Positions 11,504 to 30,670 of a DNA stretch of 64,000 nt are shown piece after piece (positions within the stretch are counted from its first letter, which is position 1; each line of letters starts with the position of its first letter). Position numbers and translations under genes: made by a program. Under the pieces are notes generated by a model. It ran no database searches. It was not told the DNA's origin and was given only the letters and a program-made list of their open reading frames with translations. The stretch is from a virus: IMG/VR virus record IMGVR_UViG_3300034071_001414, positions 1 through 64,000 of that record; one strand, given 5' to 3'.

Positions 11504-12886
11504 ATGACTACTTATGCTTTTACCCAGGTTAAAACTTGGCAGGAAAAACTTATTGACAAAGTTCTAAAATCTGATAAAAAATCTTTTAGGACTTCTCTTA
11601 AAGTTCGTGGAGAACTTATTGTTCGCAAAGGAAATCGGTGGACAAAAAATACGAACCCAGTTACTATGCAACGCCTTTCAGAAGAAAGGGCCCTGACTGA
11701 TGTATTAAAAGCATACTATTTTAAGAAGAATCCAGATACTGGGAGGTGTCGTGGATATGATACTATTGCTGCAAATCGGGGAAATACTTTAATTGTTACC
11801 ACAAAGGATATTGTAGATATTTTTGGTACTCTAATTCCAGCATATAGTATTCTTCAGTTGGATGGAAACACTAATATTGTCGCACAATGTCAACTCTTGA
11901 ATGGGGATGTGAAAATTCCAAATGATTATACTTTGGATGACTTTGTAGCACCTGAAGATGAAGTTTTGGACTTTGATGTTATCCTTGTATCAACTCAAGC
12001 ACAGTTGAACTTCTACTACGATACGATTGATAACACCACAAGTGCAAAATCTAAAGATGATAATTATTCATCTTGTCTTGTGGGTCATGGTCTTTTGAAC
12101 TATGAAACTGGAGAAACGAATCTTATTGATTGGACCGTAAAGGATATGGATCGCCCCCTCTCCTATTTGAGTGGTGTAACGATTCCCAAAGACATTCCAA
12201 GTATGAATTTTATCGTCACTGACTATCTTTCCACTATAAAAAATGTCAGAGAAGAAACTACTCCTATTATTAACAATGGTGGAAGTAATAAAGCAATTTG
12301 GAAAGCATTCTGCCTTGATATTACACAACTTGAATCGTGCGGAAAGTTTCCAGAAATGCAAGTTGTTTCTTTTCTTGACAACATTGGTAAGCAAATTAAA
12401 ATTGCTTCTGATTGTAATGTAGAAGAATATTGGAATAATAGGTTTTTTAGTGTCAAGAAATCAAAAGGTTTTTCTAAAATTGACACAAAACTTGATTCAT
12501 TCAAGAAGTTTGTTTGTTCTCCAAAGTCAAGTTGGACTCAACTATATTTCACTGCGGAAGATTGGATTCTTTGGGAACTTTTTTCTGTGAATAGGGATGA
12601 TGTAAGAGATGTTCAAGATCACCGTCTTTATGGTCACGGAGGTTCCGATATTCTTGGTGGGAAAGATAGGGCAGATTCTGCACATCAGGCACTTAATTAC
12701 TTGAGAATTATGCTTTTGTTTGGAATTTCTATTAACTTTAGTCGTCGTTTTAGTGCTATTGAAGCATTTGAATGGGCAGCAGAAAATATTGCTATAAAAT
12801 GTGCTGCTATTGACCAAATTGATCGTCTTGACATTCTTTCTGATAAGAAAGTAAAGTTGGCACTAAAGTCTTACATTTACTCTTGA
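11504..12886 (+). CDS. 460-aa orphan protein, possible ParB/DGQHR-like N-terminal domain
   Basis: Start reassigned to ATG 11504 (GGAG upstream, after promoter); NPVTMQR...LQLDGNT motif; stop overlaps dam start. Confidence 0.55.
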   Translation: MTTYAFTQVKTWQEKLIDKVLKSDKKSFRTSLKVRGELIVRKGNRWTKNTNPVTMQRLSEERALTDVLKAYYFKKNPDTGRCRGYDTIAANRGNTLIVTTKDIVDIFGTLIPAYSILQLDGNTNIVAQCQLLNGDVKIPNDYTLDDFVAPEDEVLDFDVILVSTQAQLNFYYDTIDNTTSAKSKDDNYSSCLVGHGLLNYETGETNLIDWTVKDMDRPLSYLSGVTIPKDIPSMNFIVTDYLSTIKNVREETTPIINNGGSNKAIWKAFCLDITQLESCGKFPEMQVVSFLDNIGKQIKIASDCNVEEYWNNRFFSVKKSKGFSKIDTKLDSFKKFVCSPKSSWTQLYFTAEDWILWELFSVNRDDVRDVQDHRLYGHGGSDILGGKDRADSAHQALNYLRIMLLFGISINFSRRFSAIEAFEWAAENIAIKCAAIDQIDRLDILSDKKVKLALKSYIYS

Positions 12887-13704
12887 TGAATCGCACATTT
12901 CTTAAGTGGGCAGGAAACAAAACAAGGGTCCTGCCCCATCTTATTCCACATATCGGTTATCCAAAACGATATTGTGAACCATTTAGTGGCAGTCTATCTG
13001 TTGCACTAAACACATCAGCAGAGCAATACATTCTGAATGATATCAATAAAGATTTGGTTGCAATCTATCTGAACTTGGTGAATCCAAATGATGATAGTTT
13101 TATTAAATATTGTGAAGAACTGTTTATTCCCGAAAACAATACAAAAGAAGCATATCTAGAGTTTAGGGAATACTTCAATAAATGCGCAAATAGCATAGAG
13201 AGAGCAAGACTGTTTATCTACTTAAATCGTCATTGCTTTAATGGGTTATCACGATATAATAGTAAAGGAATGTTTAATGTTCCCTTTGGTAAGTATGATA
13301 AACCATCGTGCCCATCAGAGGAAATGTGGAACTTCCGTATGTTCTTCTTATCAAAGAAACTTGTGAGATTTACATCACTTTCCTTTGAAGATTCATCTCT
13401 TTATGATGAACTTGAAGCAGGTGATACTGTCTATATGGACCCACCCTATGTTCCTGCCTCTGATACTGCAAACTTTACAAGTTATGCAACAGAAGGATTT
13501 ACTCATCAGCAGCAAGTTCAATTAGTAGAATTGGCAGAATCTCTTGCATCCAGAGGTATTAAAGTAATCGTATCAAATCATAATGTTCCAATCACACAGG
13601 AACTTTATAAAAATGCAACGATATATCCGATTCAAGTGACTAGAACTATTGCTGCCAAGGGTGGAAGTAGAAAGAAAGCAAATGAACTTATTGCTGTTTA
13701 CTAA
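12886..13704 (+). CDS. dam: DNA adenine methyltransferase, Dam family
   Basis: FLKWAGNK, EPFSGS (SAM motif I), RYNSKGMFNVPFG, DPPY (motif IV). Confidence 0.95.
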   Translation: MNRTFLKWAGNKTRVLPHLIPHIGYPKRYCEPFSGSLSVALNTSAEQYILNDINKDLVAIYLNLVNPNDDSFIKYCEELFIPENNTKEAYLEFREYFNKCANSIERARLFIYLNRHCFNGLSRYNSKGMFNVPFGKYDKPSCPSEEMWNFRMFFLSKKLVRFTSLSFEDSSLYDELEAGDTVYMDPPYVPASDTANFTSYATEGFTHQQQVQLVELAESLASRGIKVIVSNHNVPITQELYKNATIYPIQVTRTIAAKGGSRKKANELIAVY

Positions 13705-13748
13705 CTTGGATCCTCTAAAGTGTTCCAGTAATGTAAGCAACACTTCAA

Positions 13749-14162
13749 ATGGCAACTCGCTCACGAATCGGTCTTGAACTTGCAGACGGTTCTATTCTCT
13801 CCATCTACTGCCATTATGATGGTTATCCTGAGTTCAATGGTGCAAAACTTGTAGAAAACTTTAACTCCTACGAAAAAGCATCTGAACTGGTTGATCTTGG
13901 AGATATTTCTTGTCTTTGGACTAACGCTGGTTGGAATAATGAAACTCTCCCAGAAACTGGTCCTCTTCCTTACTCTCAGCGTGGTGATAATTGTCCTCCT
14001 CGCCTTGATGCTGACCTGTGTGAGTATCTTCTGCCTGATAATAGCGAAGAGTTTGCATATGTCTTCCGCAATGGTGAGTGGGTGTGCTATAATATGAATC
14101 AGTTTGATGATGCCAAACTGCCCGAAATTGTTGAAATCCCCTCTGCTGCTCTTGCTGTTTGA
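13749..14162 (+). CDS. Conserved-looking phage hypothetical protein
   Basis: MATRSRIG...SIYCHYDGYP; first gene after repeat copy 1. Confidence 0.7.
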   Translation: MATRSRIGLELADGSILSIYCHYDGYPEFNGAKLVENFNSYEKASELVDLGDISCLWTNAGWNNETLPETGPLPYSQRGDNCPPRLDADLCEYLLPDNSEEFAYVFRNGEWVCYNMNQFDDAKLPEIVEIPSAALAV

Positions 14163-14353
14163 TATATGAAAACTTCTACTACTCTTGCTGCTGCCTTTGT
14201 TGTTATTGTCCTTGCTACTGCTGGACTTTTCTTTGAAGCGTGGTTACTTGGACTCATTCTGTCTTGGTTCAATGTATCGTTGACCTTCTGGCAGAACTTT
14301 GCTATCATTGCTCTTGCTAATCTGATTTTTAAAAATACTGGAGTTTCTTCTAA

Positions 14354-14773
14354 ATGAACAAACAAAACGGATTTATTGACCCCAGTGTTGCTGTTGTTGG
14401 TCTTGCTGGTGTAGTTATTATTTTTGGTCTTGCTTTTGGTCTTCCACAGTATGGCGTTTATACCAAATCTCTAAATGGTAAAGCGCAACTTATGGAGGCG
14501 GAGTACACACGTCAAACTGCCGTATTGGAAGCACAAGCAAAGAAAGATTCTGCACAACAACTTGCTGATGCTGAAGTGATTCGTGCTCAAGGTGTAGCAA
14601 AAGCGAACTCCATTATCGGAGATAGTCTAAAAGGTAATCCTGCTTATCTTCAGTACCTATGGATTACTCAAGGAGAAGAAAACACCAGTCGAACTGTTTA
14701 TATGGTTCCCAGTAATGGTGGCGCACCTGTACCTACTTTTGATATTCAACAAGCACCTGTTATCAAGAAATGA
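14354..14773 (+). CDS. Membrane-anchored protein resembling SPFH/band-7 C-terminal region
   Basis: N-terminal TM helix; AEVIRAQGVAKANSIIGDSL...YLQYLWI coiled-coil signature. Confidence 0.6.
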   Translation: MNKQNGFIDPSVAVVGLAGVVIIFGLAFGLPQYGVYTKSLNGKAQLMEAEYTRQTAVLEAQAKKDSAQQLADAEVIRAQGVAKANSIIGDSLKGNPAYLQYLWITQGEENTSRTVYMVPSNGGAPVPTFDIQQAPVIKK

Positions 14774-15420
14774 CCAAAAAGCACATTGTCGCTGGATTGA
14801 TTGGTTTTGCAGTCATTCTTGGTTGGAATGTCTTTCTAATCCAGCGTGATGATAAGATGTATGATGCTTACTATCGTCAACAAGCAGTTCAACAACAAAA
14901 ATGACACTCCCATTTGGTATTGTACTTTACTTGTTAATTACTGCACTTGTGTTAGGATTGATTACATACTATTTCAAAGTGATTAGACCTAATGATGAAA
15001 GACGATTTGACACCTGAAGAGAAAAAGATTATCTTTCATGCTGTCAGGTATTGGCAAATGCACAAAGCAGCATTGAACGGCAAGGAATATCAAACCTGTG
15101 AGAACATTCTAAATCGCTGGTTTGATGATGTCTACACTCAACGAAAGGAGCAACAACGATGATTGAATACAACGAAGAACGCAAAGATCTGCAAATTGAT
15201 CGTAATGCTGATGACTTTTGTATGTGGGTAGAGGAGCAAGCAGCAAAACTGGAAATTACTTGCGACTATTATCTTGCGGAGTTTATGTGACATTCATCTT
15301 TGGATTTGCACTTGGAGTTCTTGCAACACTGGGAGTAGCACTTATTCTTGCTGCCGAATAAAACCCACTTGACGAAGACGACAACAACAACTAAAATAAA
15401 GAGGTAATTTACAACAGACG

Positions 15421-15651
15421 ATGAAGCATTTTTACATTGTTGACTACTGGGTTCCGTTTCCTTCTTCCGAATATGGTGGAGTAATCAATGTTATCGCAGA
15501 AAATGACATTGAATGTCACGATATTCTACGAGACTCAGATGATTATGATGCTAGGTATCACTCAAAGATTATGGAACGAGTAGTTGCTGCTCCTCGCTTC
15601 ACTCTTGTAGATGAAGAAGAGTCCCGTATTGTTGAATCCTTTACCACCTGA
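15421..15651 (+). CDS. Hypothetical protein
   Basis: ORF after TTGACG-17-TAAAAT promoter (15369-15397) and GAGG. Confidence 0.6.
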   Translation: MKHFYIVDYWVPFPSSEYGGVINVIAENDIECHDILRDSDDYDARYHSKIMERVVAAPRFTLVDEEESRIVESFTT

Positions 15652-15820
15652 TTATGACTCATCACGTTGCACACACAAACAAAATGCTTTTTGACTTGAA
15701 AGAACAGTATCAGGCACAAATTCAACGTCTGCAATCTAAAATTGATGATCAAGAGCAAGAGATTGCTAAACTCAAAACTATGATTACTCTTTTGTCTACA
15801 GAACGTGATTATGACTGCTG

Positions 15821-16120
15821 ATGAAACTCTCCATTGATTTGATACCTCAATTCAAGCATAAACCACCTGAAGGTTATTCTTATGAAGTTGAAGAGTTCAA
15901 GCGTAACGTGTTTTCTATTTGGTTGCGTTGTCACCGCCAGTTTGATTACAATAATGGAAAATCTACACGCACCATCTGGGGGTGGTACGACTACAAAAAG
16001 TGTAAGTTCTTTAGTCCTGTAAATAGTACCACAGTTGGCAAAGAAGTGAAGTTCAGTGATACTCGTTGCTGGACTTCTATGCCCATTAACTATCAAGGAT
16101 TGGAGGCATTTTTCGTATGA
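15821..16120 (+). CDS. Hypothetical phage protein
   Basis: Clean 99-aa ORF in operon. Confidence 0.6.
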   Translation: MKLSIDLIPQFKHKPPEGYSYEVEEFKRNVFSIWLRCHRQFDYNNGKSTRTIWGWYDYKKCKFFSPVNSTTVGKEVKFSDTRCWTSMPINYQGLEAFFV

Positions 16121-16521
16121 TTTTCAGCGAAGGAACAGAAGTGATTTACAAAACTATCTCTGGAGTGGTAGCATTTGCCTCTGAGCAATCTATCTCAATT
16201 CTAGTCAGTGAGGGAAATCACAAATCACAAGATGTTCGCGTAGTTGTCTATCAATCTGATTTCAATCAAGTTGTTTTTGCAGATGGGAAATGAAGAAGAA
16301 TAGCAACTGGTGGAGATGGTGGGCAAAGTCAATTGGAGAGAAAGCATCCAAATGCGATAAAGAAAGCGACACGGTTGCGGTCATTCGCACCGTGATTTTT
16401 GCTACTTACTTGATTACAAACTGTTTTATCATTTATGGTGTACTGAGAACTCATCACTTTCCAACACAACCTAAAGTTGTTAGATGTTCGATAAAATAAA
16501 TATCTAAAAAGTATAAGTAAA

Positions 16522-16920
16522 ATGCTGACATTTAGAGAGTTTTATACTATTTGCGAAGGGAAAAAACCAAATGTTCACCCCTATGCAGTTCCTGGTACTT
16601 ATCAAGAAAAAGATGGTGTAAAGACATATACTCTCAAGAGAGATGATGCACCAAAGAGAGAACCAATCAAGTCTGCAAAGAAAATAACCAAAATGCTTGA
16701 TAAGCAGGGTGGAATTGGTGGTAAAGCAATCAAGAAAGCAAAGAAGATTGAAGAACAACATCCAATAATGCAACCTAATGAGTATAACAAGCAAATTGCG
16801 CGTCAATCTGTTCGTTGGAAGGGAATGCAGATCCGTCAGGCACACGGAGAAATGGAGCACGAAGCAGGAGCACAACTAGCAGCAAAGAAAGCAAGAATGA
16901 AAGCAATTATGAGTCGTTGA
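16522..16920 (+). CDS. Basic late protein, probable internal head protein
   Basis: AATAAATA upstream; N-terminus MLTFREFYTICE resembles T4 capsid-targeting sequence. Confidence 0.5.
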   Translation: MLTFREFYTICEGKKPNVHPYAVPGTYQEKDGVKTYTLKRDDAPKREPIKSAKKITKMLDKQGGIGGKAIKKAKKIEEQHPIMQPNEYNKQIARQSVRWKGMQIRQAHGEMEHEAGAQLAAKKARMKAIMSR

Positions 16921-17560
16921 TACTTACTTGGATCCTCTAAAGTGTTCTAGTAATGTAAGCACAAAACAAATTATGGACCGTTTCGACGATATTCAAATTG
17001 AAGAGTTTTCTTCTTTTGATTTTGTTGAGGAAATGAATGAAGGTCTCTTTGATGAAGATGAAGAAGGTGAACAACCTTCAAAGTTTAACCTGAATGAGTA
17101 CATCAACGGCAATTATGATTATTGATTATGACTGCTGATACTTATACTTTTACTGGTGATGCTGTTACCTTCCTTGGTTTGGTTGGTGTTATCTCAGCGT
17201 TTTTTATTGTTGTTACTTCTTTTCGCAGGTTTTTCAACAGTCCTTATAACATTCGTATAACTCCTAAAGTTAATCAAAAAACCACTACTGAAACTACTGA
17301 ATCCTGAACTAATGACTCAAACTGTAAATGTTCTGCCTCATCTTAACGAACTGAAAGATGCTTGGCGTAAGCAAGATTTCAAATTCACTGCATCACAACA
17401 AGAGCAATATGATATTTTGATTGCTGCTCGTCGTGAGCGTGTTCATTACTTCTATGAGAACAATCTAGTGTTCAAAGGTTCTAAAGCAGCAGCAGATAAG
17501 GCACTTGGTCTACTTGAGGATGCTGACTGATAAATAACTCAAAGTAGTTTTTAGATACAG

Positions 17561-18145
17561 ATGAAAACCTTTCAGGAGTTTATTGTCGAAGCATACGATA
17601 AGGAGGTTATGGGTTCTTCTCAAATTAGAAGAACTGGTGAAGGTGGACGTATCGGTGCGGATCGTCGTAAATCAACTCCTGAAAGGCGTAGGGTTAAGGC
17701 AGTTGGTGGTGGTAAAACTGAACCAGTTGCCTATAAAGATAGAAAGGATATTGGTACTCAAAGACAAGCATCCACAAGAGTTCAACAACCAACACAAGAA
17801 CGTGGAAGTGCTGATGTAAAAGCAAAGGCAGCAGAAGCAGCAAAAGAAGAAAGAAAGAAAGCAGCATTAGCAAGAATTGCTGCTAAGAAAGCAGGTGGAT
17901 CTGCACCAGCAGCATCTCAACCTAAAGCAAAGGAAGCATCTGCAACTGCAAGCAAACTTCTATCCAAAAAGAAAGAAGAAAAACCTGTAAGTCCTGATTA
18001 TAAACCAGCAAAAGCATCTGGTTTAAGCAGACAAGAAAGATTGAAAGTAACCAGACAAGGTGAAGCAAAACTGAGAGATTTGGTTCTTAAATCAACAGGC
18101 AAGACATCTGAAAAGCAATTAAAGCATCGCTACACTTCTCGCTGA
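17561..18145 (+). CDS. Lys/Ala-rich late protein, probable internal head protein
   Basis: GATAAATA upstream; N-terminus MKTFQEFIVEA vs T4 capsid-targeting sequence MKTYQEFIAE. Confidence 0.6.
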   Translation: MKTFQEFIVEAYDKEVMGSSQIRRTGEGGRIGADRRKSTPERRRVKAVGGGKTEPVAYKDRKDIGTQRQASTRVQQPTQERGSADVKAKAAEAAKEERKKAALARIAAKKAGGSAPAASQPKAKEASATASKLLSKKKEEKPVSPDYKPAKASGLSRQERLKVTRQGEAKLRDLVLKSTGKTSEKQLKHRYTSR

Positions 18146-18734
18146 TACCTACTTGGATCCTCTAAAGTGTCTCAGTAGTATAAGCACTGAGCACTAAATG
18201 ACCTTCACTGTTACTGACAAACCCCAAATCATTAACGGCATTGAGCACACTGTCACTGCAGTTAATGGTTTGGACCGTGTTGAAATCAATAACAAACTGC
18301 ATGACATTGGCGACCAAATTATGAAACTGCGGATGCAACAAGATGCACTCGTTCAGATGCGTAACCTGATTGACCGACAATGTGAAATCAGTGAAATGGA
18401 TTCCTTGTTTGATGAGATGTTTGGTAGTTGATATAGTGTCGCCAGAGCAGTCTAGATGCCTCTAGAAGTGCTCTATTTTAGTCTTTAGATACCAAACCAC
18501 TTGAACTGATGAAATACATTAAAGTCCCCGAAACTGCACTTGAAAGGCTAATTGAAGGACTTGAAAGTGCAGTGAATGTGTGCTATACTGCTCCTAACAA
18601 TCCTGGTATTGAAGGGTATCCTTATGCGACTGGATATTCTCGCTCTGCGATGCAACAAGTTATCAAAGACCTTCAATCGCTGAAGACTCAGGCAAAGTGA
18701 CTGTAACTTGGATCCTCTAAAGTGTCCTTATAAT

Positions 18735-19982
18735 ATGATGATGAACCAAATGCAAATCCAACTCCGTCCGCATCAGGAACGTGGCGTTGCTGCGATGGCA
18801 AAGTATAACAAAGGTCAGGTGATTGTCCCCACTGGTGGTGGCAAGACTCTGAAGATGATCTATGATGCTCTGCGTGAGTTGCAGTCTGAAACTCCCCAGA
18901 CTATTGTAGTGGTTGCTCCTCGCATTCTGCTGGCAGAGCAACTCTCTGCAGAGTTCCTTGAGTTTATCACCAATGCTGCGGTGCTTCACATTCACAGCGG
19001 TGAAACTCATCACGAATCCTCTACTCATCCTCGTGTAATCCGTAAGTGGGTTGATGCCAATGCTGACAATCACAAACTGATTGTAACCACCTATCACTCT
19101 CTGTCTCGCCTTCAAGCAGCAGAGATTGATGTGGATACGATTTACTTTGACGAGGCACATAACAGCGTTCAGCGTCACTTCTTCCCTGCAACAGAGCACT
19201 TTGCTGCTAATGCACGACGCTGCTACTTCCTGACGGCAACCCCGAAACATTCCCTTGCTATGGGTAAACCTGGGATGAATGATGCGTCTGTTTATGGTCA
19301 GGTAATCTGCAAAGTTCCTGCTCCTGAACTTGTTGAGGGTGGATACATTGTGCCCCCTAAAGTTATCGTCAAGCAACTGGAGATGGTGAAGGGCAAGCAG
19401 ACCAACTTTGACCGCGATGCAGAGAATCTGCTGGAAACGATTGATGAGAACAGCGTTGGTAAGATTCTGATTTGTGCTAAGGCAACCAAGCAAATCGTGT
19501 CTCTGGTGTCTGAAACTGACTTCTGCCACGAACTACAGCAGCGTGGTTACTCTTGGATGTATATCACTGCCAAGACTGGTGCAGTGATTGATGGCAAGAA
19601 AGTGAACCGTGAGGTATTCTTTGACACTCTCTCTGCCTGGGGTAAGGATAACGACAAGAAGTTTGTTGTTCTACACCATAGCATCCTAAGTGAGGGCATC
19701 AATGTGTCTGGACTTGAGGCAGTGTTGTTTATGCGGAATATGGACTTTATTGGCATTTCCCAAACTATCGGACGCTGCATCAGGTTGCATCACGATGATG
19801 CTCGTAATCTTGCTGCTGGCAATATCCAACCAGGCGCTCTGGATTCCTATACCAAATCGTTCGGTCTTGTGTGTATTCCAGTTTACTCAAAAGTAGGAAT
19901 TGCTACTGCTCGCTCGGTGCAGGCAGTTGTTGATACGATTTTTGAAAAGGGAGAACCTGCTGTGTCGGTGGTGAGGCGGTGA
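18735..19982 (+). CDS. Superfamily 2 (DEAH) helicase
   Basis: LRPHQ, PTGGGKT (Walker A), DEAH, TAT, QTIGRCIR; start 18735 or 18750. Confidence 0.9.
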   Translation: MMMNQMQIQLRPHQERGVAAMAKYNKGQVIVPTGGGKTLKMIYDALRELQSETPQTIVVVAPRILLAEQLSAEFLEFITNAAVLHIHSGETHHESSTHPRVIRKWVDANADNHKLIVTTYHSLSRLQAAEIDVDTIYFDEAHNSVQRHFFPATEHFAANARRCYFLTATPKHSLAMGKPGMNDASVYGQVICKVPAPELVEGGYIVPPKVIVKQLEMVKGKQTNFDRDAENLLETIDENSVGKILICAKATKQIVSLVSETDFCHELQQRGYSWMYITAKTGAVIDGKKVNREVFFDTLSAWGKDNDKKFVVLHHSILSEGINVSGLEAVLFMRNMDFIGISQTIGRCIRLHHDDARNLAAGNIQPGALDSYTKSFGLVCIPVYSKVGIATARSVQAVVDTIFEKGEPAVSVVRR

Positions 19983-20016
19983 GTCTCACCCCAGTCTCAC
20001 TGAGACCTCAGTGTTC

Positions 20017-20040
20017 ATCGGGGTCAAAACCCCGATTTTT
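20017..20040 (+). terminator. Rho-independent terminator after helicase
   Basis: ATCGGGGT-caaa-ACCCCGAT-TTTT. Confidence 0.7.
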
Positions 20041-20296
20041 CTTCAATTCTACTGCAGAGGTGTCATAGGTCATCCGCTGCAATCAAATCACCGATTTTTT
20101 AGAAAGTGTAACTATGAAACAAGGATTCACGATGTTCAAAGACACATATGCTGCAATTCCTTACGGGAATCAGTATCTCATCATCTATAATGGTCAGCAA
20201 CTTGATAAACTTTGTAGGACTGAGAGTTCTGCCCGCAAATATATCACAGACCACAGAAAAAATTGTTCTAATGCAAAATTACCTATTGAGTAATTA

Positions 20297-20405
20297 AATA
20301 AATAATAGTGCCTGAAGTTGACTGACATCTCTACAGGTGAGAGGGGAGCAGAGATGCTCCTTTTCTTGTATAAATACTTAAGTCAGTCAACTTAAGAGCA
20401 GAACT
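20297..20405 (+). ncRNA. Putative antisense sRNA cassette 2
   Basis: AATAAATA 20297-20304; AAGTTGACTGAC 20315-20326 complementary to GTCAGTCAACTT 20382-20393; terminator GGAGCA-gaga-TGCTCC-TTTT; TATAAATA 20369-20376. Confidence 0.6.
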
Positions 20406-21080: not shown

Positions 21081-21373
21081 TACTAACTTGGATCGTCCAA
21101 AGTGTCCTTGTAGTATAACCACTCATCTCTGAATGACTTTTTACTGGAAGTTCTTTGATACTCTTGTCTATAATGTTGCTACTATCTGTGCATTTGTTGT
21201 TGCAGTGAGTCAGTTCCTGATTCGCTCTTTCAATGAGAACGATGGAAGCAATAAAGTTCGCAAGTTTATCAACCAAACTCTTCTGTTTGTGAATCGTTCT
21301 ACCTCTACAGTGTATAACTTCGTTAATGAAGATACTCTGCCTGAAGTAAAGAAACCCAAGCGTAGTGCCGCTT

Positions 21374-21652: not shown

Positions 21653-21751
21653 AATAAATAATGATGCTTATGTTTGGTCGCACAAGCACATTGGAGGGGC
21701 AGAAATGTCCCTCTTTTGATATAAATAATCAAGACCAAACATAAAGCAGTT
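21653..21751 (+). ncRNA. Putative antisense sRNA cassette 3
   Basis: AATAAATA 21653-21660; stem TGCTT/AAGCA; TTATGTTTGGTC 21668-21679 complementary to GACCAAACATAA 21733-21744; terminator GAGGGGCA-gaaa-TGTCCCTC-TTTT; TATAAATA 21720-21727. Confidence 0.6.
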
Positions 21752-22378
21752 ATGAATAAAATTATCCTTTTACGGGATGAAATAATTTCCGTATACAAAC
21801 AAACTTACTCTGTTATTCAAGTTTTAGAGCATTTTGGTTATTCTCGAAAGAGTGTAGAAGGAAGAAAACAAATAACTGACATTCTAAAAGAAGAAGGTAT
21901 ATTTGAGGGATTGACTGGTCCTAATGTCATAAAAATGAAGCATCAAAGGGCAAAGAAAACTATGCTCGAAAAATATGGTGTAGACAACTACTCTCACACT
22001 GAATGTGGATCTAAAAATCTACATAATCACAGACAAAAAAGTTATTTTCCTGTAATAGAAGAGTTTAGAAAATATCAGAGTGAAGTTAATAAAGAAACAA
22101 AAAAGGCAATGAGAAAGATAAAAGATAAACCAACTCATTGTGAATACCTTGGTATCAAGTTTGTAGATGATAAAATAGCAAATCCTAACGACCAATTAAA
22201 AAGGACAATAGACCATAAGAAGTCGGTTTATAATTGTTGGTTAGAGGGAATATCTGCAAAAGAAGCATCTTCGCCAGATAATCTTGCTTGGGTTTGTAGA
22301 TACATCAACAGTATAAAAGGAAATGCTGATTATGATGACATTAAACACATTTTTCCCAAAATAAAAGACAAATTGTGA
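21752..22378 (+). CDS. Putative HNH-like free-standing endonuclease
   Basis: KTMLEKYGVDN segment; C-terminal RTIDHKKS...DNLAWVCRYINSIKG (H-N-N); AT-rich. Confidence 0.6.
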   Translation: MNKIILLRDEIISVYKQTYSVIQVLEHFGYSRKSVEGRKQITDILKEEGIFEGLTGPNVIKMKHQRAKKTMLEKYGVDNYSHTECGSKNLHNHRQKSYFPVIEEFRKYQSEVNKETKKAMRKIKDKPTHCEYLGIKFVDDKIANPNDQLKRTIDHKKSVYNCWLEGISAKEASSPDNLAWVCRYINSIKGNADYDDIKHIFPKIKDKL

Positions 22379-22441
22379 CACTTTAACAACTGACCACCCC
22401 TTCTTAACTTTAACTTGGATCCTCTAAAGTGTCCTTATAGT

Positions 22442-23353
22442 ATGAGCAAGACAACCACTAAAAACCTGCACCTTGAGCACCCTGAAGATATGGTGCTGAC
22501 TGGAAATCTTGAGGTTCTTGATTGGTTCTCCGAACCTGATAGTTTTATCTCTGTAAAACTTGATGGTGCGCCTGCTGTGTGTTGGGGCACTAATCCTGCC
22601 AATGGCAAGTTCTTTGTGGGCACCAAATCTGTGTTCAACAAAGTTAAAATCAAAATCAATCATTCTCACGATGAAATTGATTTGAACCATCAGGGCAAGG
22701 TTGCTGATATTCTTCACGCTTGCCTTGATTATCTCCCTCGCATCGCAGGTATTGTTCAGGGTGACTTTATTGGTTTTGGTGGTTCTGATACTTATTGCCC
22801 CAATACTATCACCTATAAGTTTCCTGAGGTAATCACCCAAAAGATTATCATTGCTCCGCATACTTGCTACACTGCAAAGAATGATTTGCGTGATGCAGTT
22901 GCTCAACCCGACTTCTATTTGTGGGTGGATACTGCAGATGTGATGTTTGTCAAACCTGAAGCATCACTGAGTCCTTATCGTGAGGATTTGGAGGATGTGT
23001 GTAAGTTTGCCAAGCAAATGAGCACTCTATGTGAGTTTGTGAGCGATAAGAAGGCAACACAAATCAAAAAAGAGATTAACTCCTGCATCAGGGAGCAACG
23101 GGTCATCTGTGAGGATGAAATTGCAGAAAAATGTAATTGTGATAAGAACCTGATTCGTTTGTGGAAGTTGGTTGCATCTATTAAAGCAGATTTGTTCCTG
23201 TTCATTCACGAAGAGGATGAGATTGAATGTTATCTGTGGGATGTGCAATCCTTTCACGAGGGTTATGTCATCACCAACAAGTTTGGCACCTATAAAGTAG
23301 TTGACCGCGAGACATTCTCTCACGCAAACTTTACTGCTGCCAAGAGTTGGTAA
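22442..23353 (+). CDS. Conserved phage protein with ligase-like nucleotidyltransferase motifs
   Basis: KNLHLEHPED; SVKLDGAP (KxDG), VQGDF, HEGYV, YKVV. Confidence 0.55.
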   Translation: MSKTTTKNLHLEHPEDMVLTGNLEVLDWFSEPDSFISVKLDGAPAVCWGTNPANGKFFVGTKSVFNKVKIKINHSHDEIDLNHQGKVADILHACLDYLPRIAGIVQGDFIGFGGSDTYCPNTITYKFPEVITQKIIIAPHTCYTAKNDLRDAVAQPDFYLWVDTADVMFVKPEASLSPYREDLEDVCKFAKQMSTLCEFVSDKKATQIKKEINSCIREQRVICEDEIAEKCNCDKNLIRLWKLVASIKADLFLFIHEEDEIECYLWDVQSFHEGYVITNKFGTYKVVDRETFSHANFTAAKSW

Positions 23354-23387
23354 TGCTTACTTGGATCCTCTAAAGTGTCCCAGTAGT

Positions 23388-25556
23388 ATGAGAAAAACAC
23401 ATCGCTTCCAAACTTTCAAAGAGGCACTCAACTTTCTGATGAGTGAGTTGAAGATGAGCAATCAACAGGCAACTCATTTCATTTGGGACAATCAGTTTAC
23501 TGTGGGAACTGACCGTGCAATTTGGATTACTGAACCTGCAAACTGATTATGACTGACTTCTACGATTATGTTTTGAGTTTTTATGGTGCTGATGGATTGT
23601 ATCCTATGGGAGCAACTCTGAAACTCATCAAACAAGCAACTTCCACTCACATTAAGATACTTAAACTGAAAGGTGATGAGTTTGCTGGTGACAGTATTGA
23701 CCGCGAATGTGTAAGGGATTTGTTGATTAGTAAGTATAATCTTAAGTTTCCACGATGACTTACTCTAACCTCTCCAAGATTAAACCTAAACTTCGCACTG
23801 AAGGTAGGGTTTCTGGTAATTTCGGCAAATTGAAAGTTAAAGCAGGTTCTTCACTTAATGAGATTGGAATGAGCAACAAAGAGACTATCAAATGTGCCAC
23901 ACCTGATGAGTATCTGGCACGGCTTCATTATGCCTTTGACAATACTGAAGACAAGAAATTGAAACAGTTTCTTTACACTGAGATTCGCAAGATTCATGTT
24001 CAGCGTGGCACTTGGTAGGGGTTAGTAACTTGGATCCTCTAAAGTGTCCTAGTAGTATGAACAACACCATCGTTTCCGAAATCTACTCTTACCACACCGA
24101 TTGGAAGGAAGGTAAAGTCAATCAAATGTGGATTGAACAAATTGGTAATGCTGATTGTGGCAACAAATATGTCGCTGTTGCACACAATCCTCGCAATGGT
24201 TCTACAATGGAGATGAGCAACCCTCGCACATCTTACCACGAAACTCTCAACTGGGTTCGCGGTTTCTGTGGCACTTTCTGTATCCTCCCTGCCTGATTAT
24301 GACTAATCCAACTTGGGAAGAACTCAAACAAGAGGCACTCACTGAAGCATTAGAGTTCTACATCTATCGACTCAAAGAGGACAACTGCAATCAAGCAGCA
24401 ATAGATTTATTCACTCAAGTTCTCAAGGAAGTTAATCCTAACGATGATTAACAATATCAGTCGCCAACACTGGGACACTCTTTATACCAAACTCTACGAG
24501 GCATATGAAGAATGTTCTAAGAACTATGATGAGACTTATCGCCAAATGATTGGTCAGGTTCTTGACCATATGATTTACAATCAACCCTACCTGAACATCA
24601 AATGAAATACGAAGTTAAACTCTACGTCGGTGGCAAAGTCTTCAAAGAGGAAGTATATGCTAACTCTCCAAAGGATGCCGGCGAAACAGCAACAGCACGA
24701 AATCCTACAGCAAAAGTAATCGGAGTGAATGTGAAGTTTCTGTGATAGAAACTTGGATCGTCCAAATTGTCCCTATAGTATGAGCACTTCCCAAACGATG
24801 ATTGAGTTCCCTACACTTCAGTCTAAAGACGGCACAATGCTGGTAGGTTTCTATCCTATCGCTGATTCCTCTAATCACACTCTCAAGGTTCTATCTTGGA
24901 AGGGTGTTGATACTATCTCCCGCAAGTGCATCAGCAAAAAAGATGCAATCCGTGAGATTGATGAGCGTCTCGCAATGGATTATCTTATCACTGGTGATAA
25001 CATTGATCTGGTGCAAGAATACAACATTATGCAAGGTGCAGTTTGATGACGAAAACCACTCTTACTTTCAAAGAGATTGATGCACTTCTCAAGTTCATTG
25101 AATTTCACACTGATTCATTCTCCGATGAAGAATCTGCAGAAGAATTGAATGAACTTGTGGGGTGTGATGTTGATGCACTCTACAACAAACTTTCTGAAAT
25201 GCAGGATGAAGTCTGATGCGAATTGCCTTTTTGATTGTTACTCTTGCTCTTGGACTTCGCGTAGGTAATGCAGCATATGCAACCGTAAATGAGTATCAAG
25301 AACAACAAGCAGACAATTTCTGTCAAATAGACCCCAACTATTGCAAATGATTGCCCTTCCTAATCCTACAAGCAAAATGACATTCAACCGCGAACAACTC
25401 ATCGCTGATTATGCTCAGCAAATCCTAGATGGGATGGATATGAAAACAATGGAGTGTTTCGTTTATGACACTTTGAAAGACAATCTTATGCCATATACTG
25501 ATGAGGAACTGATTGAAGAGGTTAGAGAATACAATCCCGAATTGCTGGATGATTGA
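23388..25556 (+). CDS. Short hypothetical cassette genes (23388-23546, 23549-23758, 23755-24018, 24057-24296, 24602-24745, 24780-25046, 25377-25556 and others)
   Basis: Co-oriented small ORFs between repeat copies 7-10. Confidence 0.65.
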
Positions 25557-25602
25557 AACTTGGATCGTCCAAATTGTCCCTATAGTGTAAGACTCAACCA
25601 CA

Positions 25603-26193
25603 ATGCCAAAACTTACCACTCTGCAGGTATCTGCCAAACTGAAAGTAACTGATTTCAGTGCATTTGGCAAACCAGCAAAGAACAAAGGTGCTCGCGGGCA
25701 ACTGTTAGAAACTGCTCTGGGAGTTCCTAACTCATCTGACCTCAAAGATCTGGAGGATGGTGAGATTAAGACTTTCACTGTTGGTGAGAGCATCGCAGCA
25801 ACACAATTGAAGCACTGTTTGTCTGAAATCATCGAAGATTCTGTGTCATTTGATGAGAGTAAGGTTGGACAGAAACTACAACAAACTGTGTATGTTGGAT
25901 TCACACGTTCCAACGATTATGTGGGTTCTGCTATTCTGAATGAGGAAACTCACCCTGAACATTATCAGGAACTGCGTGAGGATTACGATTTCATTTGTAA
26001 CAGCATCCGCACACTTTTTGATGCTGGTAAACAACTTTCTACCATCACTGGACCTAACGGATTGCTGCAGATTCGCACAAAAGCATCTAAAACCAATGGT
26101 TGCTATGTACCTCTGACCTTTGCAGGTGTGACGCTTAAGGATAAGGGAATGGCATTCTATCTGTGTGGTCAATTTGGACGCAACCTGTTCTGA
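25603..26193 (+). CDS. mutH: MutH/Sau3AI-family endonuclease
   Basis: NKGARGQLLETALG..D..GEIKT, ELREDYD, LQIRTKA, AFYL parallel E. coli MutH DKGWIGVLLE..D..ELKT, LREDWE, LQIRPKA, GFYL. Confidence 0.8.
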   Translation: MPKLTTLQVSAKLKVTDFSAFGKPAKNKGARGQLLETALGVPNSSDLKDLEDGEIKTFTVGESIAATQLKHCLSEIIEDSVSFDESKVGQKLQQTVYVGFTRSNDYVGSAILNEETHPEHYQELREDYDFICNSIRTLFDAGKQLSTITGPNGLLQIRTKASKTNGCYVPLTFAGVTLKDKGMAFYLCGQFGRNLF

Positions 26194-26228
26194 ACAGTAA
26201 CTTGGATCCTCTAAAGTGTCCTAGTAGT

Positions 26229-28943
26229 ATGAACACCAATCAAATCGACTTTCAAACCGACATCACTCCTACACTTTTGGAGTTTATGTGCAACAATCAC
26301 ACTGACTTGAATGACTGTGTAGACTTTGTTTGCTGTCTCTTTGATCTCAATGCAACTGATGAATTGATCGATCAGATTGCAGATGAGTTTGATGCTTTCT
26401 TCGGCAACTGATTCACACTAACTGTTTTCCCACTAAATTACACTGAAATGACAAACAAAAACCCTTACGTTCAAACCCTAATTGAGATGGGTTATGATGA
26501 AGCAGACTGCCAAATGGTTGCTGATGCTGGAAGAGTAAATGTAACCTATCCGCGTAACATTTACGGTCGCATCTTTGAGACTGAAGCAGAGTACAAAGAT
26601 GCTCTTGCTGATTATATCAACGGTCTCTGACTGATAAGCATCAGTAACTTGGATCCTCTAAAGTGTCCTAGTAGTATGAACGCTTCCCAAATGCAAAACA
26701 CTTACACTTCACCCGATACAAACAAAGTTTATACCATCATCGAATCGCAATCTGAGCGTGGTGCATGGGATGAAAATGGCAATTATGCTCCGAAAGTTGT
26801 CACTCAGTACAGCATCTATGATAATACTCAGATGGTACAATTTGCATTCGATGTAGATGGAATTGCCAAATCTGTGAGGCATTATGAAGGTTTCACTGAT
26901 GGTTGGACTTCCTCACGATTTGACTGATAGTAACTTGGATCCTCTAAAGTGTCCTAGTAGTATGAGCACTAACCAAATGATTCAAGATAACATCGACCGC
27001 ATTCAAGATAGCATCAATCTCACGTCTAAACTTGCCCGAGACAATTATGATGCTCGCAATGGCATTATTGACCACATGAGAATTGATTGGTCTGAACATG
27101 CTCATCGTTTGACTTATATTGCAGGTGAGTGTTCTTATTACTTTCCTCTGCACAATCAGAACGGTGATAAGATTAACGAGGTAAAACTCTATTGTCGTTG
27201 CTCTCCTACTGTAAAAGGTGGAGTTCGCTTCTCTTATACTCTGAACGGTAAGACTATTGCTCGTTCTAAGATTGTAAATCGGATGATTGAATTGGGAGTC
27301 TGAATGTCACGCAAGACTCTAACATTCAAATCCCCAGATAGAATGAAAGTTGTCACATTAGTTTTCATTGTTGCACTTGTCTTTTCACCATCAGTAAGAC
27401 AAACAACCGCATCCATTCTTCATACCACTGCCGACATTCTTTCCCCACAACAATGAAGCAAACTCTAATCGATTCGATGTCGTCTACACTTATGGAGCGT
27501 CTTGAGTTCTTTGTAAGTCAAGATGATTATGCCACCTCAGATGCACTTTACTCTGAGTTTATTGTGAATGGAGTAGATCCAGAAGATGGAGAGTATGAGT
27601 GGTTTTTTATGAAATCCCTTTGCTGTTAGAAACTTGGATCCTCTAAAGTGTCCTAGTAGTATGAGCACCAACGAAACCAAGAAAATGAATCTGTATATCA
27701 TCAACAACGTCCTGTCTGATTATACCTCTGGAATGGCAGTGATTGCTGCTGAATCTAAAGAACAGTGCCGTGAGTTCTTTATAGCAGAGTTCAGCGAATA
27801 TCATGCTGATGAGTTCGATAAGTGTGCAAAGTTCACTGTGATTGAAGGTGTGAATCATTCTGCTGGTATGGTAGACTATGTGTACGGTGGAGGTTAATCA
27901 AACTTATTCCTTCAGTAACAGAAACTAGGATCCTCTAAAGTGTCCTAGTAGTATAAGCACTCAACCCCAAACAAATGACCCGCCTAATCGAACAACAAAT
28001 GAACATTGCAATCAATCAAGAGGTTGATTGGAAGAAGGATAACACTCAAGTGATTAACATTGAAGGCGTAAGTTTCGTCTATCTGTTTGACAATCTGATT
28101 GCAATGATTGGTGATACTTGGATGGAATTGTTTGATGGTGGTTATAAGTCAGTAACCACAAAGTCGCGTCTCAATGCTATTCTCCAAGCACACGGAAATG
28201 GAGAGTATGTGTATCAAAAGAACTTCAACTGGTTTGTATCAACCAAGGATGGAGAAGTTGCTTTCAACAATGGTATCAAACTGAACTAAGTTATGAACAA
28301 TCAAGTCTTCGGAGTCTTTGCCCGTGATAATGATTATTACGCACAACTTGAACTTCACAAACTATTCTTCAACGAACAAGATGCAGAGGTTTATGCACAA
28401 CAACTTCGTGAAATGAATTATACTGATGATGATGCTAATGCTAATGATGAGATGATATATGAAGAAGTTGAAGTCTGCAAACTGAAGGTGAATTAACTGA
28501 TGAAAAAGTATATTTTCCAACACTGCAATAGTAACAAGATTAAGACCATACTTGCAAGGTCAGAGTATAAAGCAACGACTCAAAACTTTGGCAATCTTGC
28601 TGGTTACAAGTTCGTTCAATCATTCTCTCTTAACTGATGACTAACGAACAAAAGATTGATGCACTCGTTGAACTTCTCAATGACGTAATGCACACTCTGA
28701 ATATGAAACAGTATTGTATTGATGATGCAACTGAATCTCATCAATGTGAGGTAGAAGCAGACAACTATCACCAACAAATGCTGAACATTCTTCACTCTCA
28801 AGAAAACAACTAAATGACATTCACGATTCGTTATTTTACTCCCTATCAACAAGTCTGGAGAACGCAATCATTCTCTACACTTGATGAAGCAAAACGTATG
28901 GTTGAGTTTTATCGTTCTTGTGGTAGTCCTGCAGAGTTAGTAT
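26229..28943 (+). CDS. Short hypothetical cassette genes (26229-26411, 26448-26630, 26676-26927, 26962-27303, 27661-27897, 27975-28289, 28293-28496 and others)
   Basis: Small ORFs following repeat copies 11-15. Confidence 0.65.
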
Positions 28944-29037
28944 AATCATAAGAGGAAAGGAGTTTGCCTCTATTAAGTAAAGAAAGTGACTTCCGTAGAG
29001 TATAGATAATTCAACTAATTGGTGGATGGGTGTATAG

Positions 29038-29068
29038 AGAGAGGGACTGGTTATCCCTCTCTTTTTTT
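29038..29068 (+). terminator. Rho-independent terminator at the convergent junction
   Basis: AGAGAGGGA-ctggtta-TCCCTCTCT-TTTTTT. Confidence 0.75.
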
Positions 29069-29074
29069 ATGCTT

Positions 29075-29614
29075 TTATGGATGAGGTAAAGTATTCATTA
29101 CCTTACGCAATCCGTATTGGTTGATATATTGTTCTAATGCACCTTCAATTATACTATTTGTGAACTCATAAGAGTTAGGAACTGGTAATCCTTTACGATG
29201 AGAAGCAGCGTGAACTTCTTTAATCTTATTCGTTACATAATTATCCAGAACAAATCCCTTAGTTTGTGATAAATGTTCCATATTTTGTTTTCTACTTATC
29301 CACTCAAGATTCTCAATTCTGTTATCACATTGGTTGCGATTGATATGATTAACTTCCAGTGTGAAATCGTCACAGGGTAAGTATGCCATAGCAACTAACC
29401 TATGAACATACAAATTACGCTTGTTTCCCTTGTCATCAGATAGTCTAACGAACAAATAGTTGCCCCTTTTCTTTGCCCATCCTGGACGTAGTTTCTTTAC
29501 CTTGTTATACTTGAAAGACCAAACATTGCCATTTACATCTATAGCATAATCACCAAACTTCTCTAAACCTTTGATTTCATTCAGGTTCTTAAGTCTAACT
29601 GTTGGGACTTCCAT
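29075..29614 (-). CDS. NUMOD4-HNH-type endonuclease; the only convincing minus-strand gene
   Basis: YAIDVNGNVWS, YVHRLVAMAYL, EVNHINRNQCDNRIENLEWISRKQN. Confidence 0.85.
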   Translation of the reverse strand: MEVPTVRLKNLNEIKGLEKFGDYAIDVNGNVWSFKYNKVKKLRPGWAKKRGNYLFVRLSDDKGNKRNLYVHRLVAMAYLPCDDFTLEVNHINRNQCDNRIENLEWISRKQNMEHLSQTKGFVLDNYVTNKIKEVHAASHRKGLPVPNSYEFTNSIIEGALEQYINQYGLRKVMNTLPHP

Positions 29615-29619
29615 TTCAT

Positions 29620-29655
29620 AGTATTTTCTACTAAATCTATGTAGTAGAAAATACT
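29620..29655. repeat. Perfect 14-bp inverted repeat just upstream of the HNH gene
   Basis: AGTATTTTCTACTA-aatctatg-TAGTAGAAAATACT. Confidence 0.9.
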
Positions 29656-29929
29656 TTTTAGAGAGTGGATAATGTATGATTAAATTATAGTGAGTAAATG
29701 ATAAAAAGGTATAATAGTTGTGTAATCTCTCTGTGTGCTTATAAATGTGCTGAGGTCTTGTTAGCTAAGACAGCATAACATAAGGACCGCACTTTTGTCA
29801 ACTCCGGGGTCACAAAATCCTCACAATCCCCTGCCAAAATGTCACACCCCGAGCATAAATACCCCCAACACCCTTGACATTAACCCCACAGCATCTTATA
29901 GTAGTTCCATAACACCAAGGAGAACACTT

Positions 29930-30103
29930 ATGTCGGTTGCATATCAACAAGCACAGAAGCAGCGTTATAGGGTCACTCTGGATTTGGCAGTGTTCGGTGA
30001 CTTCGATCCACATCAAATCGACTGGGAGCGGTTATTTAAGTTGGAACCTGCTGAACACTGTGAGGCATATGTTGAGGACTTAAATACACCTGATAGTTGG
30101 TGA
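29930..30103 (+). CDS. Hypothetical protein
   Basis: TTGACA(29874)-17-TATAGT promoter, AAGGAG SD, ATG 29930. Confidence 0.7.
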   Translation: MSVAYQQAQKQRYRVTLDLAVFGDFDPHQIDWERLFKLEPAEHCEAYVEDLNTPDSW

Positions 30104-30137
30104 GTTGGTATCATTTTATACCAAAAGTAGGGGTTTT

Positions 30138-30186
30138 ATTTTGTTAACATAAAGCATACATATTAGGTCCTTTATGTTAACAAAAT
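30138..30186. repeat. Perfect 17-bp inverted repeat overlapping a start codon
   Basis: ATTTTGTTAACATAAAG-15 nt-CTTTATGTTAACAAAAT. Confidence 0.9.
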
Positions 30187-30364
30187 GAGAACTCTAAAAT
30201 ATAGTCATTTGGGTGAAATGGTCATCATAAGAGTAGCACAGAAAACGACCAAAGTGCTACCTTACCTGCAAGACCTTATGCAACAATTAGAGGAGAACGG
30301 TAGGGATAGTGATGAGGTGATACTGCAGGTCCTCGGAGAACTTGAAGAACGCTTGAGTAACTGA
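30185..30364 (+). CDS. 59-aa hypothetical protein, possibly ribbon-helix-helix-like
   Basis: Own translation: MRTLKYSHLGEMVIIRVAQKTTKVLPYLQDLMQQLEENGRDSDEVILQVLGELEERLSN. Confidence 0.5.
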   Translation: MRTLKYSHLGEMVIIRVAQKTTKVLPYLQDLMQQLEENGRDSDEVILQVLGELEERLSN

Positions 30365-30394
30365 AACTTGGATCCTCTAAAGTGTCCTAGTAGT

Positions 30395-30670
30395 ATGAGC
30401 ACAACCAGCACCCGCAAGATGACAACCTACCAAACCAATTTTCTGGAAACTGGTTATAATGGATGGAGTACTTATGAGACCTGGAACGTTGCTCTCTGGA
30501 TCAACAATGATGAGGGTCTTTATCACCTTGCTGCTGAGTGTGGTGATTACGAAACCCTTGTAAATCGTCTGTATGATGATTATGGGGTGCGTGAAACTAA
30601 GGACGGTGTAAAGTTCAATGACCCCAAAGTGAACGTGATTCAGATTAACTCTGATGTCTTTGATTTCTAG
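30395..30670 (+). CDS. Conserved-looking phage hypothetical protein
   Basis: YNGWSTYETWNVALWINNDEGLY; follows repeat copy 16. Confidence 0.7.
   Translation: MSTTSTRKMTTYQTNFLETGYNGWSTYETWNVALWINNDEGLYHLAAECGDYETLVNRLYDDYGVRETKDGVKFNDPKVNVIQINSDVFDF

Follow-up and report, generated by a model that had tools for sequence, protein, structure and literature searches.

The stretch of DNA analysed here (the window) comprises positions 1 to 64,000 of IMG/VR virus record IMGVR_UViG_3300034071_001414 (G000), a 98.5-kb fragment with an estimated completeness of 46%. Nucleotide and protein searches assign the window to the T4-like cyanomyoviruses (Kyanoviridae): all 14 megablast matches are Synechococcus phages, the closest cultured relative is S-CAM7 at ~70% amino-acid identity, and DNA of the source phage is present almost exclusively in lake-water metagenomes. 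The locus of interest covers the early 'hyperplastic' region of this freshwater phage. There, a gene for a D12-class N6-adenine DNA methyltransferase (dam) is followed by ~17 kb of small open reading frames (ORFs) interspersed with 16 copies of a GATC-bearing repeat, and one of these ORFs encodes a MutH-like nuclease. The first-pass annotation of this DNA had bound the methylase, the nuclease and the repeats together as one locus, and offered three readings of it: a restriction-like pair directed against unmethylated competitor DNA, nicking of the repeats that starts recombination between cassettes, or a methylation switch on promoters. We find that this three-part system, as proposed, is not real as a system, and that the repeats and the enzymes are independent of one another.

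The repeat unit is ~31 nt long and reads ACTTGGATC(C/G)TC(T/C)AAA(G/T)TGTCC-N3-TAGTAT; its 16 copies share one strand and all lie within positions 13704-30396 (Table 1). Matching the 22-mer ACTTGGATCCTCTAAAGTGTCC with up to three mismatches returned 16 sites, all on the plus strand, against 0.00 expected from 100 shuffles, and no further copies in the rest of the 98.5-kb record. Thirteen copies carry GGATCCTCT, one of them in the form ACTAGGATCC, and three carry GGATCGTCC. GATC is kept in 16/16 copies, as initially noticed, and stands at an identical offset in each, inside the dyad TTGGA-TCS-TCYAA, the 5 bp of which are perfect in the three GGATCGTCC copies and include one G.T pair in the others. 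The copies run from stop to start: each opens at the stop codon that closes the gene before it and finishes 10-20 nt ahead of the next start. The layout described at first pass also holds in its particulars: dam ends in a TAA (13702-13704) whose last base overlaps copy 1, copies 10 and 11 flank the MutH-like gene as a cassette of its own, and copy 4 is followed by an SF2 helicase gene.

GATC in the repeats of relatives

Within the repeat, the invariance of GATC is unremarkable, as most of the 22 core positions are equally invariant; another palindrome, CTAG, occurs in about half of the copies. We searched IMG/VR with the downstream half of the repeat only (AAAGTGTCC-N3-TAGTATGA) and recovered it from more than 117 stretches belonging to many phage lineages. 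The 20 nt upstream of this half sort into lineage-specific modules (TTGGATCCTCT, GTTACTCACCTCC, TAGCTCACCTCC, TGGGCCCTGT, GGGGGAGCCCCT, CTGAGCCACTT and others), and the cores found across the family include CTCACC, GGGCCC, GAGCCA and GTAGCT. GATC is present upstream in 71 of 301 copies, and in 128 of 129 loci the copies agree in having or lacking it. Any one genome has a single, unvarying 6-nt core.

The sharpest comparison is provided by relative G025, a complete 222.5-kb genome with terminal repeats, in which dam and mutH are 84% and 91% identical to those of the window and stand in the same arrangement. All 14 of its repeats are GATC-free and have a CTCACC core. Its array (L160, G025:C1:43000-62500, reverse strand) is syntenic with 13704-30396 and shares eight cassette genes with it, in order; eight of the 16 cassettes in the window have no counterpart there. 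For six of the eight cassettes in common, a repeat immediately precedes the gene in both genomes, and in each of the six cases the two genomes carry different modules (GGATCC here, CTCACC in G025), with the first two shared pairs keeping an unusual TAATGT -10 box and their own leader. Neither simple drift nor long-tract gene conversion explains so uniform a swap of the module, and a lineage-specific trans-acting reader is one possibility. In an elaboration of this idea, which we regard as a long shot, the upstream 9-13 nt of each early promoter would be a swappable 'address' for a lineage-specific trans-acting factor, perhaps delivered with the DNA, and in the lineage of the window would be read via Dam methylation, so that the phage's own methylated DNA fires its early genes and unmethylated recombinant or rival DNA with these promoters is silenced, or is nicked at them by the MutH-like enzyme.

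The same independence from GATC is seen ahead of mutH in other phages. An IMG/VR search with a 13-sequence alignment yielded 80 mutH loci at 77-98% identity; the element ahead of the gene is GATC-type in 16 of them, a GATC-free member of the same family in 24 and another element in the other 41, many of the last being classical stem-loop plus TTGAC...TATAAT promoters. The promoter has no GATC in 64 of the 80 loci. On the mutH tree the GATC trait changes at least seven times, and at least two of these changes are forced by well-supported branches. Among cultured phages, S-RIM8 and S-CAM7 have both genes and repeated promoters without GATC, and the complete genome of SynMITS9220M01 has at least nine CTCACC-type copies and neither dam nor mutH. 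The intergenic repeats of S-RIM8 show a TGTGCCA...TGGCACA dyad upstream of the stem-loop promoter. Relative G005 carries GATC-type repeats and dam and has no mutH in 145 kb, and a 20-kb contig (IMGVR_UViG_3300005582_000163) carries eight GATC-type repeats and no D12 dam. In dam's slot before the first repeat of that contig lies an N6_Mtase/Eco57I-type methylase, in two ORFs of 149 and 300 aa (L023:4051-5383, minus strand). The statement that GATC-type repeats are confined to Dam-positive phages was dropped on account of this contig, which has another N6-adenine methylase instead of a D12 dam.

Relatives therefore keep the repeat without GATC regardless of dam and mutH, as G025 and SynMITS9220M01 illustrate. 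The first-pass annotation had itself listed such a result as counting against its proposal, and the logic that bound the repeats to the enzymes in one locus falls with this result. Since close relatives that bear dam and mutH carry GATC-free versions, the repeats of the window most likely contain GATC by coincidence.

This distribution bears directly on the proposed methylation switch, in which RNA polymerase would bind all 16 early promoters differently once Dam has methylated the GATC in their -35 region, and the contrast between methylated incoming DNA and under-methylated replicated DNA would serve as an early-gene timer. E. coli, IS10 and phage P1 offer known examples of promoters that respond to Dam through a GATC in the -35 or -10 box. 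In the window, GATC overlaps the -35-like hexamer TTGGAT in 16/16 copies, dam is the first gene of the array, and 16 of the 34 GATC sites between 13.7 and 30.4 kb fall within repeats despite the depletion of GATC. However, the -35 region is unconserved across the repeat family, as the four cores listed above make plain, and for this reason is unlikely to be read by a host sigma factor; close Dam- and MutH-positive relatives run a syntenic array with GATC-free modules, and the trait flips repeatedly on the mutH tree. With G025, S-RIM8, S-CAM7 and four-fifths of the mutH loci all lacking a promoter GATC, we consider the switch quite improbable.

Nicking as a starter of recombination fares worse. 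Here, nicks made by the MutH-like enzyme at hemimethylated GATC in newly replicated repeats would seed recombination between copies and so shuffle the cassettes. MutH proper does nick the unmethylated strand at GATC, and cassettes are indeed gained and lost at repeat boundaries, given the eight that are missing from G025 and a replacement in two lake metagenomes. The latter emerged from Logan contigs of four lake-water DNA runs: in runs X2 and X3, 168 unrelated letters stand in place of the small ORF directly behind copy 11 (26232-26446), starting on the left where the repeat ends. This replacement alone looks real; the other joints were not counted as recombination, as the contigs break at repeats and most joints have sides of just 20-33 nt within repeat sequence. 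Against a role for nicking, cassettes turn over equally with the GATC-free repeats of G025 and in SynMITS9220M01, which has neither gene; G005 combines GATC-type repeats and dam with the absence of mutH; and promoter-early stem-loop (PeSL) elements of coliphages shuffle cassettes with no need for such a nuclease (PMC2839356). We judge this reading very improbable, the least credible of those considered.

Table 1. Genes and repeat copies of the locus, in window coordinates
Feature	Position	Strand	GATC site	In-frame ATG overlapping the -10-like box	Remarks
dam, D12-class N6-adenine DNA methyltransferase	12883..13704	+			likely start ATG 12886; final gene ahead of repeat array
Repeat copy 1	13704..13734	+	13709		GGATCCTCT; -10-like TAATGT; ORF from 13749
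Repeat copy 2	16926..16956	+	16931		GGATCCTCT; TAATGT; ORF from 16973
Repeat copy 3	18151..18181	+	18156		ORF from 18198
Repeat copy 4	18706..18736	+	18711	18735	upstream of helicase
SF2 helicase (ResIII/DEAD + Helicase_C)	18735..19982	+			Pfam; downstream of repeat copy 4
Repeat copy 5	21086..21116	+	21091		GGATCGTCC variant
Repeat copy 6	22413..22443	+	22418	22442	upstream of DUF6267 gene (22442-23353)
Repeat copy 7	23359..23389	+	23364	23388	
Repeat copy 8	24028..24058	+	24033	24057	
Repeat copy 9	24751..24781	+	24756	24780	GGATCGTCC, AAATTGT variant
Repeat copy 10	25558..25588	+	25563		GGATCGTCC, AAATTGT variant; upstream of MutH-like gene
MutH/Sau3AI-family PD-(D/E)XK nuclease, 196 aa	25603..26193	+			D49, E54, K56, K91
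Repeat copy 11	26200..26230	+	26205	26229	
Repeat copy 12	26647..26677	+	26652	26676	
Repeat copy 13	26933..26963	+	26938	26962	
Repeat copy 14	27632..27662	+	27637	27661	
Repeat copy 15	27924..27954	+	27929		ACTAGGATCC variant
Repeat copy 16	30366..30396	+	30371	30395	

The Dam methylase and the MutH-like nuclease

The assignment of Dam to the D12 class is secure, with a match to PF02086 at an E-value of 5.9e-60 (203 bits; cut-off 22) and to TIGR00571 at 256 bits (cut-off 115), although the protein scores below the E. coli Dam equivalog NF008152 (271 versus 441 bits). Its three best solved relatives, E. coli Dam (2g1p, E 2.5e-72, aligned over the full length), then DpnM and T4 Dam, all methylate GATC. 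The catalytic DPPY motif is present, and the residues that we take to contact the GATC bases in E. coli Dam (K9, N120, L122, R124 and P134) are identical in the alignment. The family assigned at first pass is thereby supported, and the enzyme, nearest to three solved GATC methylases, probably shares their specificity. A single scan of genome contigs with Dam as the query gave two weak Acetivibrio matches only and is uninformative on host GATC methylation. The record holds a second D12-class adenine methyltransferase gene, more divergent, outside the window (G000:C1:91602-92399; TIGR00571 E 3.3e-25, below the cut-off).

Assigning the nuclease to a family needed profiles and fold, since single-sequence searches (Pfam, PDB and PADLOC) gave nothing usable. 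The protein matches NCBIfam MutH over its full length with an E-value of 1.4e-9, and a profile of 48 homologues searched against the PDB retrieved the MutH proteins of H. influenzae and E. coli (2aoq, 1.4e-15; 2azo, 7.9e-15), Sau3AI (4.6e-6) and BcnI (1e-3). With an AF2 model of high confidence (pLDDT 95.7), the top five Foldseek matches were all MutH (probability 1.00, TM 0.51-0.62), followed by Sau3AI and MvaI. All 48 sequences have D49, K56 and K91, with E54 as the consensus at its position; these predicted catalytic residues align with the D, E-x-K and K of MutH. Profile and fold thereby bear out the MutH-like label of the first-pass annotation, in the sense of a MutH/Sau3AI-family PD-(D/E)XK nuclease. 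The further step of calling the protein MutH proper, the mismatch-repair equivalog, was rejected, given a score of 37 bits against an equivalog cut-off of 243, the lack of MutL and MutS in the phages and the lack of mutH in cyanobacteria; judged by profiles and model, it is a member of the MutH family and not a MutH equivalog. Close homologues number 783 and are widespread in T4-like cyanophages.

The two enzymes travel together. All 25 MutH-positive phage records are also Dam-positive, with few independent lineages among them, and Dam of this type occurs in only ~70 of 419 T4-like cyanophage records. In the S-RIM8 group, dam, mutH and the helicase gene are contiguous in this order, with intergenic spacers of ~70-80 nt, whereas dam and mutH are 12 kb apart in the window; at the IMG/VR loci, mutH either precedes dam by 33-89 nt or is located within 1-5 kb of it, on one side or the other. 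In the cultured phage S-8S29 (OQ504979.1; L245:1610-3088) Dam and MutH are fused in a single ORF of 492 aa, and a metagenomic protein cluster (P0273, 26 members) consists of the 492-aa Dam-MutH fusion and carries PF02086. Co-inheritance, adjacency in either order and fusion are as expected for a nuclease that is dangerous without its methylase. No MutL or MutS was found in G000, G025 or G002, and cyanobacteria have no mutH, although MutS is present and MutL often is (PMC5101192); the nuclease would consequently have to act alone.

These features argue that Dam and the MutH-like nuclease form a functionally coupled pair, probably of restriction-modification-like character. Among the earlier proposals, the restriction-like pair hence remains the best reading of the enzymes, since every MutH-positive phage record has Dam, the two genes can be neighbours in either order, and fusion occurs naturally; only the tie to the repeats has to be given up, as relatives keep GATC-free repeats irrespective of both genes.

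Avoidance of GATC was also analysed. Genome-wide, GATC is about two-fold under-represented (188 observed versus 422 expected), as are most 4-nt palindromes. Pooled mutH-positive loci have an observed-to-expected ratio of 0.42, compared with 0.60 and 0.78 for relatives that are dam/mutH-negative, and in 24.5 kb of S-RIM8 A.HR1 (L001, 20885-45466), a member of the group with adjacent dam and mutH, it falls to 0.09 (9 observed versus 99 expected). As a signature of self-avoidance this depletion is a weak trend, compatible with a restriction-like pair and not decisive. Palindrome avoidance in general is extreme in 13701-30422 and stronger there than in the rest of the genome (observed/expected: AGCT 1/42, GGCC 0/7, CATG 7/62, CCGG 2/9).

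The main alternative for the enzyme pair is that it serves the phage's own DNA, either in methyl-directed repair of hemimethylated DNA with host MutS and MutL or through nicks that prime recombination-dependent replication. The closest solved relatives of the nuclease are, after all, true MutH proteins, and the alignment spans nearly the whole protein, including an FY motif that aligns with what we take to be the methyl-group sensor of MutH; the hosts, moreover, supply MutS and often MutL and have no MutH of their own. Set against this are the absence of MutL and MutS from the phages, a score far beneath the MutH cut-off, and a fusion to the methylase and a restriction-modification-like adjacency that fit a toxin/antidote-style pair better; we also know of no evidence that host MutL activates a MutH-type enzyme of this kind. 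A role in repair or replication is unlikely in our estimation, although it is the alternative that we take most seriously.

Interpretation of the repeats and the enzyme pair

Turning to what the repeats might do, the conserved half carries a TAnnnT -10-like box in 16/16 copies, and the -35 region matches the consensus at 3 of 6 positions. In picocyanobacteria TAnnnT is the main determinant of promoters. The only stem available is the 5-bp dyad TTGGA/TCYAA, and other modules, such as CTCACC, have no dyad. Marine relatives have, ahead of mutH, a stem-loop formed by a G-run and a C-run with TTGAC in the loop, followed by TATAAT or TATACT (TTGAC-N17/18-TATAAT), in the architecture described for PeSL elements (PMC4122927, PMC2839356). 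Because of the stop-to-start layout, the TAnnnT box, the marine stem-loop promoters in the same place and the turnover of cassettes, the repeats are most likely PeSL-like early promoter cassettes.

The interpretation that we favour, with a probability of roughly 60%, combines such PeSL-like early promoter cassettes with an independent, restriction-modification-like Dam-MutH pair acting on GATC. The 16 repeats would be stop-to-start regulatory cassettes, that is, early promoters that double as module boundaries. Their conserved half (AAAGTGTCC-N3-TAGTAT) would supply the TAnnnT -10 box, with the start codon 10-20 nt further downstream, and their upstream half of 9-13 nt would be a swappable, lineage-specific module, here (T)GGATC(C/G)TC. 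GATC would then be a by-product of this lineage's module and not a site retained for Dam or MutH. For its part, Dam would methylate the phage's own GATC sites genome-wide, and the MutH-like nuclease, presumably methyl-sensitive and free of MutL control, would nick or cut GATC that is not fully methylated, in the DNA of the host or of a co-infecting phage without Dam.

Several observations count against this interpretation. An E. coli-style sigma-70 consensus scan does not call the repeats, in which TTGGAT and TAGTAT together match only 7 of 12 positions. In 10 of the 16 copies an ATG overlaps the -10 box (positions in Table 1), in frame with the downstream ORF in every case and the sole nearby ATG in four; this is a poor fit to a start site downstream of TAGTAT, unless translation occurs on read-through RNA, and gives room for a role at the RNA level. 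With regard to the enzymes, MutH proper is latent without MutL, and the depletion of GATC is non-uniform, the mutH-positive S-CAM7 standing at 0.75. Motif I of Dam reads FSGSL in place of FxGxG (it is likewise altered, to FAGTC, in S-8S29), and because the second glycine is replaced we treat the activity of Dam as presumptive. Finally, an adenine methylase of some kind stands at the array start of every GATC-type contig in which that start could be inspected, and for this reason the two parts may still be linked permissively, with GATC modules tolerated only in methylating phages.

The overlapping ATG invites another explanation, namely that the repeats are not promoters but RNA-level stop-to-start linkers that would signal translation initiation or processing on a long early transcript produced by read-through, and whose 3'-terminal ATG would be the start codon. 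Consistent with this, the reading frame is kept in all ten copies that bear the ATG; the six others have ATA or GTA followed by a TAA stop at this point, and their ORFs begin 48-54 nt into the element. The stop codons of the preceding genes adjoin the element, and the sigma-70 scan does not call it. On the other hand, TAnnnT is kept in all copies, and the marine relatives carry near-consensus promoters at the same position upstream of mutH. In addition, 6 of the 10 copies with the overlapping ATG contain another in-frame ATG at the distance where the remaining copies start their ORFs, as would fit an upstream in-frame ATG that is tolerated on read-through RNA. Linkers of this type are therefore rather unlikely, and early promoter cassettes remain the preferred account of the array.

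The early region is flanked by tail-fibre and structural genes on one side and by baseplate genes on the other, and S-RIM8 and SynMITS9220M01 are arranged alike. The helicase behind copy 4 is a conserved marker of T4-like cyanophages, with a homologue in 419 cyanophage records; its identification as UvsW was dropped, and we kept the label SF2 helicase because it gave no significant match to solved UvsW and has no clear solved relative. Two genes break into the array with no repeat at their heads, a NUMOD3 (GIY-YIG-type) gene at 20406-21080 (plus strand) and an HNH homing-endonuclease gene at 29075-29614 (minus strand), and an ORF at 21752-22378 is possibly endonuclease VII-like.

Comparison with known systems

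The nearest known counterparts of the repeats are the PeSL elements of T4-type phages (Arbiol et al. 2010, PMC2839356; Comeau et al. 2014, PMC4122927). PeSL come as dozens of near-identical intergenic elements of ~50 nt. As with these, the repeats are near-identical, intergenic and confined to the coding strand of a hyperplastic early region, where each stands ahead of a small ORF or a short run of them; they have a sequence peculiar to a phage group and are tied to the gain and loss of cassettes among relatives. They differ in having a weak -35 match and at most a 5-bp dyad in place of a G-run/C-run stem-loop, and in being divided into a downstream half common to the whole family and an upstream module, which has been exchanged at the six syntenic copies compared with G025. 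Dense PeSL arrays in cyanophages are not reported in the literature that we searched, and S-PM2 is reported to lack them (PMC4503421). We therefore regard the repeats as the cyanophage version of a known type of element, to which is added an unexplained swap to the same module across copies. In these cassettes the core is conserved and the module has been replaced, at the syntenic copies examined, between close relatives; concerted evolution of phage regulatory elements is seldom displayed so cleanly. Dam-regulated promoters such as IS10 pIN, P1 cre and dnaA resemble the array in that GATC lies inside a promoter hexamer (a putative one in the array) and the genome encodes Dam, and differ from it in that GATC is not retained here in Dam-positive relatives.

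The Dam-MutH pair is best viewed as a variation on a known theme, a candidate GATC restriction-modification-like module built on the MutH fold. MutH is known as a mismatch-repair nickase confined to some proteobacteria; here, a nuclease of its family is widespread in T4-like cyanophages, with Dam alongside it and sometimes fused to it. The literature searched contains no description of such a pair beyond automatic annotations ('DNA mismatch repair protein MutH', at JGI and in one GenBank record). With MutH of E. coli and H. influenzae the phage nuclease shares a homologous fold, the D-x(n)-E-x-K site and the equivalent of K116, and its QIRxK and FY motifs align; the phage Dam is about as near to E. 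coli Dam as phage genes get. The differences are that the phage nuclease, at 196 aa, lies far below the equivalog level, that neither a phage MutL or MutS nor a host MutH accompanies it, and that its gene is linked or fused to dam, unlike bacterial mutH.

If the nuclease is indeed a methylation-gated GATC enzyme, the pair would constitute a phage-borne restriction-modification module that destroys the DNA of the host or of rivals, and would be relevant to how abundant aquatic phages shut off their hosts, exclude superinfecting phages and avoid GATC; it is open to study in the cultured phages S-RIM8, S-CAM7 and S-8S29. Sau3AI, BcnI and MvaI are Type II restriction enzymes that have the MutH fold and are independent of MutL, and Sau3AI recognizes GATC, although it contains two MutH-like domains against one in the phage nuclease, and is naturally partnered by a C5 methylase rather than by a Dam. 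In the chloroviruses, R.CviAI and M.CviAI form a GATC restriction-modification pair that is used to degrade host DNA. The cyanophage pair would be analogous, with a lytic virus of a phototroph again encoding an adenine methylase for GATC together with a nuclease for unmethylated GATC.

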